A stretch of 64,000 nt of DNA, from positions 128,278,001-128,342,000 of the forward strand of contig OX597819.1 in the NCBI GenBank assembly GCA_951406725.2, in the 5' to 3' direction. Under the pieces are notes generated by a model. It did not search any database and was not told where the DNA came from. It saw only the letters and a list, made by a program, of their open reading frames with translations. The stretch's first letter is position 1; the number at the start of each line of letters is the position of its first letter. This document shows positions 38,599-43,757 of the stretch, one piece after another. The position numbers were made by a program, and so were the translations under genes. The stretch is from Octopus vulgaris. Lineage: Eukaryota.

Positions 38599-38991
38599 TA
38601 CATATATTTATATATATGCATATATATATATGTATATATATAGATATACGTATATATATTTATATATATGTTTGTATATATATATATATGTGTGTGTGTG
38701 TGTATATATATATATGTATGTATATATGTATATATATATATATGTATGTATGTATGTATGTATACTGTTACATATAAAAGTGATTATTAACATGTGTATT
38801 TTTTTACAATCTACACAAGCAGTAGTGTGTGTAAATATATATATATGTATGTGTGTGTGTATGTATCTATGTATGGATGTATGTTTGTATATATATATAT
38901 ATATATAGTCATTGATTGATTGATATTTATGCTAGTATGTTTGTGTGTATATATATATATGTGTGTGCATATAAGTATTAAAATTTCTATT

Positions 38992-39054
<63 letters not shown>

Positions 39055-39056
39055 GT

Positions 39057-39300
39057 ATAATGTAAAGTATAGAAGCCATCTTATCATGGCTAACCACACT
39101 GGGGAGGGGGTTGTTACTGTAGGTTTATAGCCCCAAGAGATCTTCGTCTCTAGCTGGCTCTAAACACAATACCTGTGTCTTTGGAGTGTTTGCAAAGGGA
39201 GGCCATCCCTTCCTCGCAAGCCTGAGTGATACGCTCGAACTAGTTTCGGGATGTTTGTCCCTTCGTCAACGGGCGGGAACCACCAGGTAAAGCGATGAAA
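39057..39300 (-). mobile_element. Hammerhead-bearing ~360-bp monomer, part 1 (continues at 42668)
   Basis: Near-identical to 42785-43027; hammerhead motif at 39233-39274 on minus strand. Confidence 0.8.
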
Positions 39301-42300
39301 TTTTCTTTTATTATGATCAATAGATCTAACATAGAATGGGTACATTACAGGACAAAACAATTACAAAAATGCTATGCGAGTTCGAGTGAAATTATAAAAT
39401 TTACAAAATTAAAATTTTATGTAACTTGTACGAAAACTTGGCTTACTTTGCCTTGAAACGAAACCTTGGCTTACTTTTGCCTTTATCACGAGAACTTTTA
39501 GTGCGTATGTTTTCTTTTCTTTTCTTTTTTTATTATTAATTCTTTATTTTAAACAGTTATGTACAGTGAAAGGTAATGGGAGTGTACCAGTTTCAATTTT
39601 GAACCCGGCAGCCTATAAATCCCAGCAGCTGAATTTTCCCTTTCCTCGATGACGTTTGGGTTACTCTCACCCACCTTTCTCATCACATCCTTCCAACGTT
39701 CCATATACTCTTTTCTTGTGGCAGGCTCCTCTTCTCCAACCCCATCTTGCTCTTCAGATGATATCCGAAGTATTTTAACAAACCGGGCGCCAGAGATAAA
39801 GGACCCTTTCACTCAGACCTTCCACTCTAGTTCTCCATACACACTCTTTCAATACTGCCACCGTACAGTAAAACAAGCCCTTACCTTCCTTTGAGAGTCC
39901 AGTTGGCGGTATCATCTTAATCATAGGATCCAGCCGACAGCTGTACTCGTCCCAGATGCGACAACACGTAATTCCACGTAACTTATCAAGTTCGACAGCT
40001 CCCGACATTGTACAAAAGCGTGTTGAACGGTTTCCATCGTCCAACCCACATCTTGGACACGTCGGTGGCACTGACATTCTGTGCCTGACAACTTCTCGCG
40101 AACAGGTAATGCATTCCTATAGCACTTGCCAGGTCAGGGATTTTTGGTAATTATCCAAATACCCCGGCCTGAAAGTCTTCTTAAACAGGTTGGAGAAAGT
40201 TGATCCTTCATCGAACCCTACAGAGCCCTTCCTAGGACGTCGTCATTTTTTCCTCCTACCAGCCCTTTATAGAACACCGAGGTGGTATTCCCCGCTGCCG
40301 GCCTTACCCATCTTGTGGATCAGCCAGAGTGCCTGCCGGCACCCTTCTGCCATGAAGTCAGTTTACGTCCTTTAATGAGACCGGGTGCGTAAATCCCTTC
40401 CATAGAGGCCGGTCGCGGGAAGAATTCCTCTGCCAGCGAACTCCACACCCTTATCATCCTCCAGGTAACACCAGAGATGTCTCAACTCCTCAACGCATGC
40501 TTGCGCATCATTAGCCAAGGCATCCCCCAGTCCACCCTTTAGCGGTTCCTGGCAACACACGGAGCGTCTCACAAGTGGCTTTCCTCCTTTCCACAAAAAG
40601 CGGAAAATGAGTCGTTCCAACTTGTTTAACCACGAATCGGGGCAAGGCACGACGGTCAGCGCGGTAGGTGACGACAGAGGCTATAAACATCTGTGCCATC
40701 TCCGCCCTCACTTTCAAGGAAAGATGCCTTCCGGACCACTTCCGTACTATGGCATCCACCTTGCTCATTACCTCGCCCCAATTCTTTCTCCGTCTGGGAG
40801 TCTGGACCACACCAGACTCCGAGCAATTTAACAGGACCATCCGTCCAGTGTCCAACAACACTGGACGGTATCGGCTTGTTCCCTCCAGGTGCCGAGGCGC
40901 AAACCGATGGACTTGTCCCTGTTAACTTTTGCCCCTGCCACCGTTAACTTGTCCTCATAACTTTTGCTCCTGCCGGGCCAACGTACTTTCTCTCGGTTGT
41001 CACCTCCTGGGTGACATCCTTAATGAAGCCGGCTTTGCTGGCTTTGTCTTTCCATCCTTCTTCTTCGCCGACTTCTTCCATATCGCCACTCCGCTTCCTT
41101 CTCGGTCGCTTTGTAGCACCTGATCAGCGTACTTGCTTTCACCCATGTCTCTACTCTCACGTTCTTTGTGGTGTATGGCGTAATAATTTTTTCGTTGGGT
41201 TGTGAAGTCCTTCTTACAGTTGGGGGTGGGGTTTGTTAAAGTGCTGGCCTATAAGTGTAGTACTGCCGGGGTGGGGATTGGAGAATATTTTTAATTTGTT
41301 CGTCTGCGTTGTTTTTTTTTTTTGATACGGGTGGGGAGTCAGGGGTGATGGATTTTTTCCTTTTGTTGGACACGTTCGTAAATTCCATGTCTTCTTGTAT
41401 ATTTGTTTTTGTTGTCTTAATTTCCTCCTCCTTTCCTTTCTCATTTTGCATTTCGTTCTTTATTCTTCCTCCTTTTTGGAGTTCGACCTGTTTATTTTTT
41501 CCTCCTTGCTTTCGCCAGCCGTTACTTTTTTCTCCACTTTTGCTGCTTTCTGCGTTCTTCACAGCGTTTTTTTGGGGGGGGTATTACCCGCATTATTTTT
41601 TTTTTTGTGCAAACGGAGCGAACGTGGCCCTTTTGCTCGCACTTAAAACATCTGGGCCTGCGTCCTTCCACCGAAACTCGTATGGAGTGCCCCCTCCCCC
41701 ACGAAGACTCTGTCTGGTAGGCCGGGATTATCCGCCGGGATTATCATCTCCAGCTGCTGGCCTCTCCAATGTTTTGCAATTTTCCTCTCTTACATACTCA
41801 AAATTGTCAATTTCCGATTCAACATCAAAAATGACCGCTGTTGCCGCCCACATCACGTCGTAGCCCGCTGGTATATCTTCTAGGGTCGCCTTTGCGGTTA
41901 TTCTGCATCCTCAAATATATGGGTAGCAGTATTATACTCTCGTTTTTCAACGTTTGTGTCGAAATTTGCCTTGCTACTTCCGCCGTCTCAAAATGCGCCT
42001 CCAATGTAGCGCTTCTTGCACCTCGGTTGACATGACTAACTTTACTCCATATTGGAGCCATACACTTTTCGACCATTTCGTTTTTTACGTCGGTCATTCG
42101 TTTTTTCTTTAATATTGCACACCTTGTAGGTGACCATTTTTTCCTTTTTATTGCCCGTATAGTTTCGGGGGCGGGTACCAATCGTGTTTCTTCACCACTT
42201 TTTTTGCACCAGTGGTTCTGAATCCCAATAGTTTTTCCATTGACACCCTCCATTTCTTCGACTTCGCTGTCTACGGCGTCTGAAAAACTGGGTTTTGCCT

Positions 42301-42649
42301 GTGTTTCCTTTTGTTTAACAGTTGTTATACTTTCTCCCATCTCGGGACAGTCTTTTGAACTTAAGTCTAATTCCATACATTAGACAACACAAACTTGTCA
42401 CAAATGACAAGAGAAATTTTTTTTTTTTTTCAAAAAAATAACCTATACAGGTTAAGAGTTCACACAAAAAAACAATTGGTGAAATTTTCTACCCCGAAGG
42501 GCGAAAAATTACCGGGTCAAAAACAGTTCAACAATGTAGAGTTATTACGTGTAACACGACAAAGTAGACAAACGGAAACGAACTCAACACGCAACGATTT
42601 GCAGCAACAGAAAAATATTGGTATACGCCGAGGAAAAATCTCAAAAAAA
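39301..42649 (-). mobile_element. Tx1/L1-clade LINE, internally deleted, with TSD
   Basis: TSD caccaggta(aa)gcgatgaaa at 39281-39300 and 42650-42667; A-rich 3' end. ORF1 relic with CCHC knuckle CFKCEQKGHVRSVC (41650-41609). ORF2 C-terminus GAKVNRDKS, VKLLGVW, WSGRHLSLKVR, LIFRFLWKG, KGGLG, CPRC. Confidence 0.9.
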
Positions 42650-42667
42650 CACCAGGTAGCGATGAAA

Positions 42668-43282
42668 GTGAAGGATCCTTTGCAAACAAATATAAGTTTT
42701 TTCTAATGGCGTCTGCCACTGATGTCGAAAACGAACAGTAGGTATAATTAAATCTCAGAATGAGATTGAAACAGTAATCGCTCGATAATGTAAAGTATAG
42801 AAGCCATCTTGATCGAGGGCTAACCACATTGGGGAGGGGGTTGTTACTGTAGCTTTATAGCCCCAAGAGATCTTCGTCTCTAGCTGGCTCTAAACACAAT
42901 ATCTGTGTTCTTGGAGTGTTTGCAAAGGGAGGCCATCACTTCCTCGCAAGCCTGAGTGATACGCTCGAACTAGTTTCGGGATGTTTGTCCCTCGTCAACG
43001 GGCGGCAACCACCAGGTAGCGATGAAAATGAAGGCTCTGGTGCAAACAGATATAAGTTTTTCTAATGGCGTTCTGCCACTGATGTCGAAAAACGAGGGGA
43101 CAATCATCCCGAAACTAGTTCGAGCAGTACTACACTACAGGCTTGCGAGGAAGGGATGGCCTTCCTTTGCAAACACTCCAAAGACACAGATATTGTGTTT
43201 AGAGCCAGCTAGAGACGAAGATCTCTAAGGGCGTTAGTAAAGCTACAGTAACAACCCCCTCCCCAATGTGGTTAGCCATGAT
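42668..43282 (-). mobile_element. Remainder of monomer 1, monomer 2 and an inverted partial copy
   Basis: Direct repeat of the 39057 unit starts at 42785; 42818-42995 is inverted at 43092-43277. Confidence 0.8.
42963..43003 (-). ncRNA. Type I hammerhead-like ribozyme (UUGACGA core)
   Basis: gcccg-TTGACGA-ggga caaaca tccc-GAAA-ctag-TT-cgagc; palindromic AACTAGTT stem III; C3U in both monomers. Confidence 0.65.
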
Positions 43283-43757
43283 GTGTCTACGTGTGTGTAC
43301 GTACGCATATGTGTATTCCGATTTAATATTAATTGAAATTCATACAAAAACGTATAAATAGACGTAAGGCAAATCAAACTAGAAATATATAAATATTTGT
43401 TCCTCATAAATTTTTGTAGACAAGCACTCGCGCGATATATTTATACATACAGAAACACAAAACACATATATATGCATGTATGCGTGTATATATATATATA
43501 TAAACACAAAGACATGTATGCGTATATAAATGCGCACACATATATGTGTGTGTGTATAATAACGATATATTATTATTTATAGGTTTCTGAATATATATAC
43601 ATATATAAATAAAAAATTACAAGTATAAAACCCCCGCCGCACACACATCTTTGTGTGAGTGTGTGTGTGTGTGTTTGTGTGTGTCTTTGTGTGTGTGTGC
43701 TTGTGTGTGTGTGTGTCTTTGTGTGTGTGAGTATGTGTTTATGTGTGTGTGTGTGTT

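Follow-up and report, generated by a model that had tools for sequence, protein, structure and literature searches.

Positions 39057-43282 of the stretch of Octopus vulgaris DNA analysed here (the window: 64,000 nucleotides of contig OX597819.1) hold one insertion of a 361-nt non-coding repeat that carries a hammerhead ribozyme motif and has been split by a long interspersed nuclear element (LINE). We consider it probable that the repeat is an animal retrozyme of the type without long terminal repeats (non-LTR retrozyme), most likely copied by Penelope-like enzymes, and that its RNA, whose predicted start lies 25 nt before the hammerhead core, would cut itself.

A first-pass annotation had described the locus as one monomer in two pieces, a second monomer and an inverted partial copy. 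The same layout was obtained by reading positions 38700-43700 on both strands and with a repeat finder: a full unit split by the LINE, a 5'-truncated unit head-to-tail with it (1.85 units), and an inverted arm. The minus strand of the window is taken as the sense strand because the hammerhead is readable there. Along this strand the inverted arm comes first, then truncated unit 2 and the 5' part of unit 1; the LINE follows, and after it the 3' part of unit 1 and a (TA)n tract. Unit 1 consists of a 5' part of 117 bp (42668-42784, minus strand, unit positions 1-117) and a 3' part of 244 bp (39057-39300, minus strand, unit positions ~118-361), which add up to 361 bp and terminate beside (TA)n at the fixed 3' end of the family, ...ACAUUAU. 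Unit 2 (42785-43091, minus strand, unit positions ~56-361, about 306 bp) lies head-to-tail upstream of unit 1 and is 97% identical to it over 175 nt. The inverted 5' arm (43092-43282, plus strand) is the unit reversed, q96-q273 in family coordinates, and forms 95-nt arms with a complementarity of 94-96%. An ACGA microhomology at 43092-43096 marks its junction with unit 2, and its outer end is shortened in comparison with a paralog at C6:79.93 Mb, where the arm reaches the normal outer end. As first proposed, the unit has no open reading frame (ORF): its longest ATG frame is 24 aa, and its GC content is 44%. On either side of the insertion, at 38700-39056 and 43283-43700, there are long microsatellites of (TA)n, (GT)n and (TATG)n.

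The hammerhead motif and its conservation

The motif of unit 2, at 43016-42946 of the minus strand, reads GGUGGU-UGC-CGCCCG / UUGACGA / GGGA-CAAACA-UCCC / GAAAC-UA-GUU^C / GAGCG-U-AUCACU, with the predicted cut at 42968/42967. The outer stem GGUGGU/AUCACU is separated from helix I by an internal loop that has UGC on its 5' strand and U on its 3' strand; helix I (CGCCCG/CGAGCG) has 6 bp with one C-A mismatch. These are followed by the UUGACGA core, a 4-bp helix II (GGGA/UCCC) with the loop CAAACA, then GAAA, helix III (AC-UA-GU) and the site GUU^C. The motif of unit 1 (approximately 39217-39287, minus strand, predicted cut 39238/39237) reads UUGACGA-A-GGGA...UCCC-GAAAC-UA-GUU^C, with one extra A after A9. 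Both units contain the 8-nt palindrome AACUAGUU. Helix III alone would have only 2 bp, so two copies would need to pair to form it, a dimer mode that is described for amphibian and Penelope hammerheads (PMC4209133, PMC7229834). The proposal that each monomer has a hammerhead is borne out for units 1 and 2, which carry both the UUGACGA core and the palindrome. In the inverted arm the motif begins at ACGA and keeps its 3' two thirds only, without U3-G5 and the 5' strand of helix I.

The descriptor TGACGA-N12-16-GAAAC-N2-6-GTH matched two sites in the 64-kb window, where 0.01 were expected from 100 shuffles. Rfam returned no match for the whole window at the gathering score. With the threshold relaxed to E<=10 on 4.5 kb, it returned no hammerhead and only chance matches to miRNA models driven by the flanking microsatellites, which were discarded. 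With 101 nt alone, Hammerhead_HH9 (RF02275) aligned over its full length (positions 1-77) at 26.8 bits and an E of 2.9e-5 for that small search. The window motif has the same helix lengths as HH9 and similar loops (UUGC/UA vs UUAC/UAC; CAAACA vs CAAAAA), whereas its helix III is 5 nt shorter and its C3 is replaced by U. Two copies folded together gained 6 kcal/mol over two separate monomers, yet the resulting structure lacked the helix III duplex.

Two further families of the unit, B and C, were found via LINE junctions and are 70-79% similar to family A, to which the window belongs. Eighteen hammerhead regions were aligned (four of family A, eight of family B or B-like, six of family C) and the structure was drawn from these same sequences, which represent three lineages only and therefore few independent events. 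In the proposed structure 95.4% of cells pair, vs 18-48% after a shift of the 3' partners by 1-3 columns. Both sides change in six of the 18 pairs, as in helix II, where GGGA/UCCC becomes GAGG/CCUC, and in helix I, where CGCCCG/CGAGCG becomes CAUGCG/CGUAUG. The covariation score was 0.304 vs 0.168, and none of 500 shuffles reached it. Helix III is palindromic in all three families with a different sequence in each (ACUAGU, ACUAUAGU and ACUGCAGU). Relative to the hammerhead consensus (C3-U4-G5-A6-N7-G8-A9 ... G12-A13-A14, A15.1-U16.1, H17), position 3 is U in units A and B, which share the UUGACGA core, and the remaining core positions agree with the consensus; the core of family C is the canonical CUGAUGA, with GUC. 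Judged from this alignment, the hammerhead fold, helix I in both its parts included, is retained by compensatory changes across the three families, which speaks for a ribozyme under selection. Just 3' of the hammerhead, the block CGAGG(G)AGGATGRCCTCCCTTTGCAAA (columns 93-119; about 42945-42915 on the minus strand of the window) is near-invariant across the three families and could form a G-rich hairpin.

Break points in the copies provide a suggestive fossil hint of cleavage, in small numbers that count breaks at the cut site and at the adjacent bases. Exact motifs number about 29 for unit B and about 60 for unit A. Nine exact family-B motifs have GUC followed by a base other than C: one is a point change, one (L124) matches by its 17-nt seed only and was set aside as a likely chance match, and seven break exactly at the predicted cut. 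The broken copies continue into foreign sequence; they are L065, where this is another LINE, L123, and a chimera family at five places. Breaks one base earlier were at chance level. In family A, one of the four non-C cases (L126) breaks exactly after GUU.

The chimera family (L120 at two places, L121, and L122 as an inverted pair) consists of a family-B 5' cleavage fragment ending in GUC followed by an unrelated tail of about 110 nt (AAAAGAACTTTCACC...), and is inserted in (TA)n with inverted arms. The L126 copy (C15:30.116 Mb) is a mini-insertion in (TA)n, made of 46 nt of unit A (q78-q123, ending in GUU) and the 18-nt tail GAAGCTCCTTCTATAAAA, with an inverted partner arm.

Dispersed copies and the candidate copying enzyme

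A genome search with the 306-bp unit 2 gave 1402 first-look candidates, of which 40 were scored (72 matched pieces); the full-length copies among them are 93-97% identical. Copy anatomy was studied in 30 loci with 1.5-kb flanks, chosen by score from the roughly 1400 candidates and including the window (L001) and its paralog (L002). The sense arms of these loci measure 297-557 nt and have scattered 5' ends, q150-q364, whereas their 3' ends fall at two fixed places in 26 of the 30: ...ACATTAT (about 14 loci) or 41-46 nt further, at ...AATTAT/...ATGCCTA (about 12 loci). This 41-46-nt tail is present in about 13 of the 30 loci. Half of the loci (15) have an inverted arm, which in 12 of these ends outward at the same two places as the sense arms. 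Ten loci adjoin (TA)n, and clear target duplications of 7-11 bp were found in six loci outside microsatellites (L006, L011, L016, L019, L021, L027). The complete 361-nt unit recurs with both ends and with target duplications. Partial tandems, an inverted 5'-truncated copy, a tail of 30-40 bp and (TA)n targets are described for Penelope-like insertions (PMC8557442), and by these sequence features the insertions of the family match the anatomy of Penelope-like elements.

The exact hammerhead 17-mer occurs 56 times in the genome. Same-strand pairs among these 56 motifs are confined to the window and its paralog, both with the LINE in between, and there are seven inverted pairs. L125 has two same-strand hammerheads 358 bp apart in an arm of 573 nt that starts at q79, the longest sense arm seen; the idea that sense arms never extend upstream of the cut site was dropped on account of this copy. 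Contigs from four of 14 runs, all of them of guessed RNA origin, matched the units (1, 18, 13 and 17 contigs, respectively), and some extend into unique flanks or into the LINE 3' end at the target site. One joint that appeared to go back by 342 proved to be the unit simply read on; contigs by their nature reveal neither ends nor circles.

Metazoan non-LTR retrozymes have a type I hammerhead and head-to-tail repeats of about 150-450 bp in dimers to multimers, have no ORF, long terminal repeat, primer-binding site or polypurine tract, are low in GC, and are flanked by target duplications (PMC7229834; 10.64898/2026.07.22.740005). They give rise to unit-length linear and circular RNA, and their hammerhead self-cleaves as monomer or dimer (same sources). 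The octopus family resembles them in its 361-bp unit free of those four features, its GC content below 50%, its type I hammerhead, its short palindromic helix III implying dimer action, its target duplications and its Penelope link. In contrast to the arrays described there, its copies have 1.0-1.6 units; and it has a U3 core with a GUU triplet and a U2-promoter-like motif. From sequence comparison, we read the family as a probable new member of the animal non-LTR retrozymes. The idea of a cephalopod retrozyme family, already put forward in the first-pass annotation, stands as far as dispersal, lack of an ORF, a covarying type I hammerhead and Penelope-type insertion anatomy are concerned. It is not supported for arrays: longer ones were looked for, and L125 was the only further locus seen with two same-strand hammerheads. 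We found no case of a cephalopod retrozyme in print.

Several observations weigh against this reading. All 30 sampled loci have fewer than two units, and a genome-wide pattern search found no place with two exact hammerheads at unit spacing. With no arrays and a longest sense arm of 573 nt, nothing in the data requires a rolling circle. As to the ribozyme, the 26.8 bits obtained against HH9 are about half of its gathering score (52), and the folding stability of the 71-nt motif is no better than that of shuffles (z -0.33). U3 replaces the conserved C3 in 28 of 28 exact-pattern genome copies, so that U3 is a state of the family rather than a mutation of this locus. GUU serves as the cleavage triplet, and variants of the core are described as lowering the cleavage rate (PMC7151607). 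Cut-site breaks are also few; of the 20 family-B motifs with GUC followed by C, 18 run on normally and two break one base later. Finally, no Penelope element whose ends are related to the unit was found: 12 sampled Penelope loci with 1.5-kb flanks showed no blastn similarity to it.

Much of this would be expected of an element resembling a short interspersed nuclear element, which would form no circle. Its linear transcripts would come from an internal promoter of the small nuclear RNA (snRNA) type in rare multi-unit master copies, and the U3 hammerhead would be weak or would serve to trim the 5' leader only. Besides the short copies, the missing tandem pairs and the U3 core with its GUU triplet, the 5' ends of the sense arms speak for such an element: they lie at q150-q364 (q79 in L125) and extend upstream of the predicted start at q67 only in the window and its paralog. 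It is less easily reconciled with a hammerhead fold kept by compensatory changes in three families and with the existence of junctions exactly at the predicted cut site, and the sample from which the short copies are known comprises 30 score-chosen loci out of about 1400 candidates. We regard this alternative as possible, although rather unlikely. As far as the sequences indicate, the short copies are equally compatible with a circle and with a linear template that exceeds one unit.

The genome is rich in candidate Penelope enzymes. A search for GIY-YIG domains gave 6136 first-look candidates, and 148 of the 150 that were scored pass the Pfam cut-off. For at least 16 of these matches (L114, L119 and at least 14 other places) the surrounding open frame measures exactly 781 aa, pointing to a Penelope-like family that is young and may still be active. 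In L114 and L119, repeats of about 70 bp with the motif TGATGACGTC lie about 140 nt past the start of the GIY-YIG match.

If the units were ordinary Penelope terminal repeats (pseudo-LTRs, pLTRs), left as solo or incomplete ends by an autonomous Penelope-like element, both their insertion anatomy and their hammerheads would be accounted for, because the former is Penelope-like (PMC8557442) and the latter are typical of pLTRs (PMC4209133). With the Penelope-like insertions described in these two sources, the family shares incomplete copies in head-to-tail order, a 5'-truncated copy in inverted orientation, a tail at one end, (TA)n as a target and a repeat-borne hammerhead. Unlike in pLTR-bearing Penelope elements, there is no ORF with reverse transcriptase (RT) and GIY-YIG between or beside the repeats here. 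No RT or GIY-YIG ORF was found within 1.5 kb of any of the 30 unit loci, where constant attachment to a Penelope ORF would have been the mark of a pLTR, and the sole long insert is a LINE of the apurinic-endonuclease (APE) type. The 12 sampled Penelope loci, in addition to their lack of similarity to the unit, contained no hammerhead by the search patterns used. The motif also differs from the minimal Penelope hammerhead in having the canonical type I form, with a 6-bp helix I, a 4-bp helix II and HH9-like loops. Given the 30 loci free of a Penelope ORF, the lack of similarity to the 12 sampled Penelope loci and the recurrence of the complete 361-nt unit with both ends and target duplications, a pLTR origin is very improbable.

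The homing LINE and the putative start of the unit RNA

The LINE that splits unit 1 (39301-42649, minus strand, 3,349 bp, 3' end ...ATAATAAAAGAAAA at 39301) had been handled as an incidental insertion. This view has to be revised, because the element is target-specific and homes to exactly this site. In the window it is bounded by an 18-bp duplication of unit sequence. The left copy of the duplication (39281-39300, CACCAGGTAAAGCGATGAAA, with the flank written CACCAGGTA(A)AGCGATGAAA) has two extra A relative to the 18-nt right copy (42650-42667, CACCAGGTAGCGATGAAA), and the base at 42663 within the latter, the A of AUCGCU, is where the RNA of unit 1 is predicted to start. The window copy is dead: a remnant of ORF1 keeps its CCHC knuckle (a weak CCHC match), and a deletion of about 2.2 kb near 40943-40970 has cost it the endonuclease and the greater part of the RT. 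More complete copies (L031-L038, about 5.5 kb) have an ORF1 with a CCHC knuckle and an ORF2 with APE, RT and zf-RVT domains (Exo_endo_phos 1.4e-13, RVT_1 8e-32 and zf-RVT 5.5e-10 in L037).

Among 30 sampled LINE 3' junctions, 19 lie at the homologous site in hammerhead units, five at U2 snRNA genes and six elsewhere; the junction between the LINE 5' end and the unit recurs in many diverged copies. The target within the units is TTTCATCGCTACCTGGTG in family A and TTCATCGAARACCGGTG in families B and C. In U2 genes the target is the first bases of the gene, or tandem LINE arrays located there, and the duplication is TTATCGCTTCTCGGCC. Recurrent insertion at one sequence by more than 20% of copies has been used to define target specificity (PMC4494074), and insertion of this LINE at one sequence exceeds that share in the 30 sampled junctions. 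From its sequence, the LINE is a target-specific element that we call Tx1/Keno-like, a clade name based on its domains and target behaviour. It has the APE, RT and zinc-finger set, the single exact site and the 16-18-bp duplication described for Keno (U2 snRNA genes), Tx1L (Tx1D) and Tx1-Mar (Mariner-N4_AMi), and it shares with Tx1-clade LINEs both the use of U2 genes and of another mobile element as targets and the short target-derived 5' heads (PMC4494074). In contrast to Keno, Tx1L and Tx1-Mar, its main target here is a hammerhead retrozyme, at the base matching U2 position 1. Our literature search found no paper tying a Tx1 LINE to a hammerhead retrotransposon; one candidate was judged unrelated by its title and the start of its abstract. 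Nor did we find a paper on this retrozyme family or its homing LINE.

The position of the LINE target bears on where the unit RNA would start. Relative to base 1 of U2, the hexamer ATCAGT stands at -61 to -57 in 28 of 30 U2 genes and is absent from the rest of the 120 nt before the gene; of 28 family-A sites, 24 have it at -59 or -60 relative to the A of ATCGCT. A longer match, ACATCAGTGG, is common to the unit and one type of U2 promoter; this U2-promoter-like motif lies at 42716-42725 in unit 1 and at 43076-43085 in unit 2. The start predicted from it is 43024 in unit 2, 25 nt before the core, and 42663 in unit 1, within the right duplication at the LINE 5' junction. In addition, where LINE copies sit in U2 genes, the U2 duplication and the body of the LINE are separated by exactly ATCGCTACGTGGTG. 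This remnant is what the full-length cDNA of a LINE RNA started at the A of the unit would leave, and it supports the predicted start site. Taken from these sequence relations, the LINE target site is likely the transcription start of the unit RNA.

Just upstream of the promoter-like motif, the sense strand has a run of four to five T (42731-42735 and 43088-43092; sense GTTCGTTTT(T)CGAC), which would terminate RNA polymerase III if that polymerase transcribes the unit. Unit 2 of the window and three other copies of the family (L022, L029 and L030) begin at or beside this run.

The surroundings of other LINE copies add some detail. Arrays of U2 genes with full-length LINEs at U2 base 1 were found at L037 (C3:20.82 Mb), at L038 and at L078-L085 (C23:43.31 Mb), with a repeat of about 1.75 kb on C23; at the C3 locus, LINE copies follow one another head-to-tail at a distance of 5,525 bp, separated by nothing but the duplicated U2 start. 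In the 3' flanks of L058, L063, L069 and L059, the LINE end is followed by a short target-like remnant and then by a T-run with a different 5' sequence. This looks like the head of a related LINE family, possibly in a tandem LINE-LINE arrangement. At L035 (C4:124.13 Mb), two composites of the LINE in unit B stand head to head, 354 bp apart, and would reflect either two separate insertions in both arms of one retrozyme or one inverted duplication.

The window composite has a paralog at C6:79.93 Mb, 95.7% identical over 4.3 kb, which shares its internal deletion and its inverted-arm junction. A segmental duplication was considered as its origin and set aside, as the flanks share only (TA)n. A second composite alike in its deletion and arm junction, in flanks that differ except for (TA)n, is what one would expect if the hammerhead repeats were the LINE's own terminal repeats and the whole 4.2 kb a single element, but this can be put aside with near certainty, given that the LINE has an 18-bp duplication of unit sequence at its borders, occurs in U2 genes without any unit (L037, L038, L052-L055, L064), also sits at the homologous site of two other unit families, is far outnumbered by units without it, and shares the deletion junction in only two of 40 scored matches.

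A proposed life cycle and its implications

For the retrozyme that we favour, the following cycle can be proposed. The snRNA-type promoter within the unit would drive transcription from the A of AUCGCU. A copy with several units, such as the window locus before the LINE arrived, would yield an RNA with two hammerheads, which could pair via the ACUAGU palindrome and cut at GUU^C. The template would be a linear RNA longer than one unit or else a circle of 361 nt closed by ligation. A Penelope-like RT-endonuclease would then reverse-transcribe this RNA at staggered breaks in (TA)n, and its action from both DNA ends would produce the direct and the inverted arms. The LINE would have inserted later at the start site of unit 1, thereby gaining the promoter of the unit.

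A more ambitious version of this scheme may be entertained tentatively, and we hold it to be doubtful as a whole. The unit would be a complete small-RNA gene, with an internal U2-type promoter and a start 25 nt upstream of a U3 hammerhead that cuts in vivo. The Keno-like LINE would have switched from U2 to the start base of the unit, thereby stealing the promoter of the retrozyme, and the hammerhead, 71 nt past the LINE 3' end, would trim the LINE RNA and leave target sequence on it. If this were true, parasitism would be stacked in three layers, with a LINE exploiting a retrozyme that in turn exploits Penelope enzymes.

Among animals, retrozymes have been recorded in corals, mussels, amphibians and other vertebrates, and their transcription and copying enzyme are still argued on indirect evidence. 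The octopus family is young and clean-ended, and it offers three testable handles. These are a promoter-like motif, common to U2 genes, at a fixed distance from a candidate start base; two insertion arms that end at two fixed places in the Penelope style; and a natural U3 variant of the core beside a sister family with the canonical C3. The LINE is a second, separate story in the same coordinates. Its homing provides an independent marker of the putative start site and, at the same time, a new target class for target-specific LINEs.

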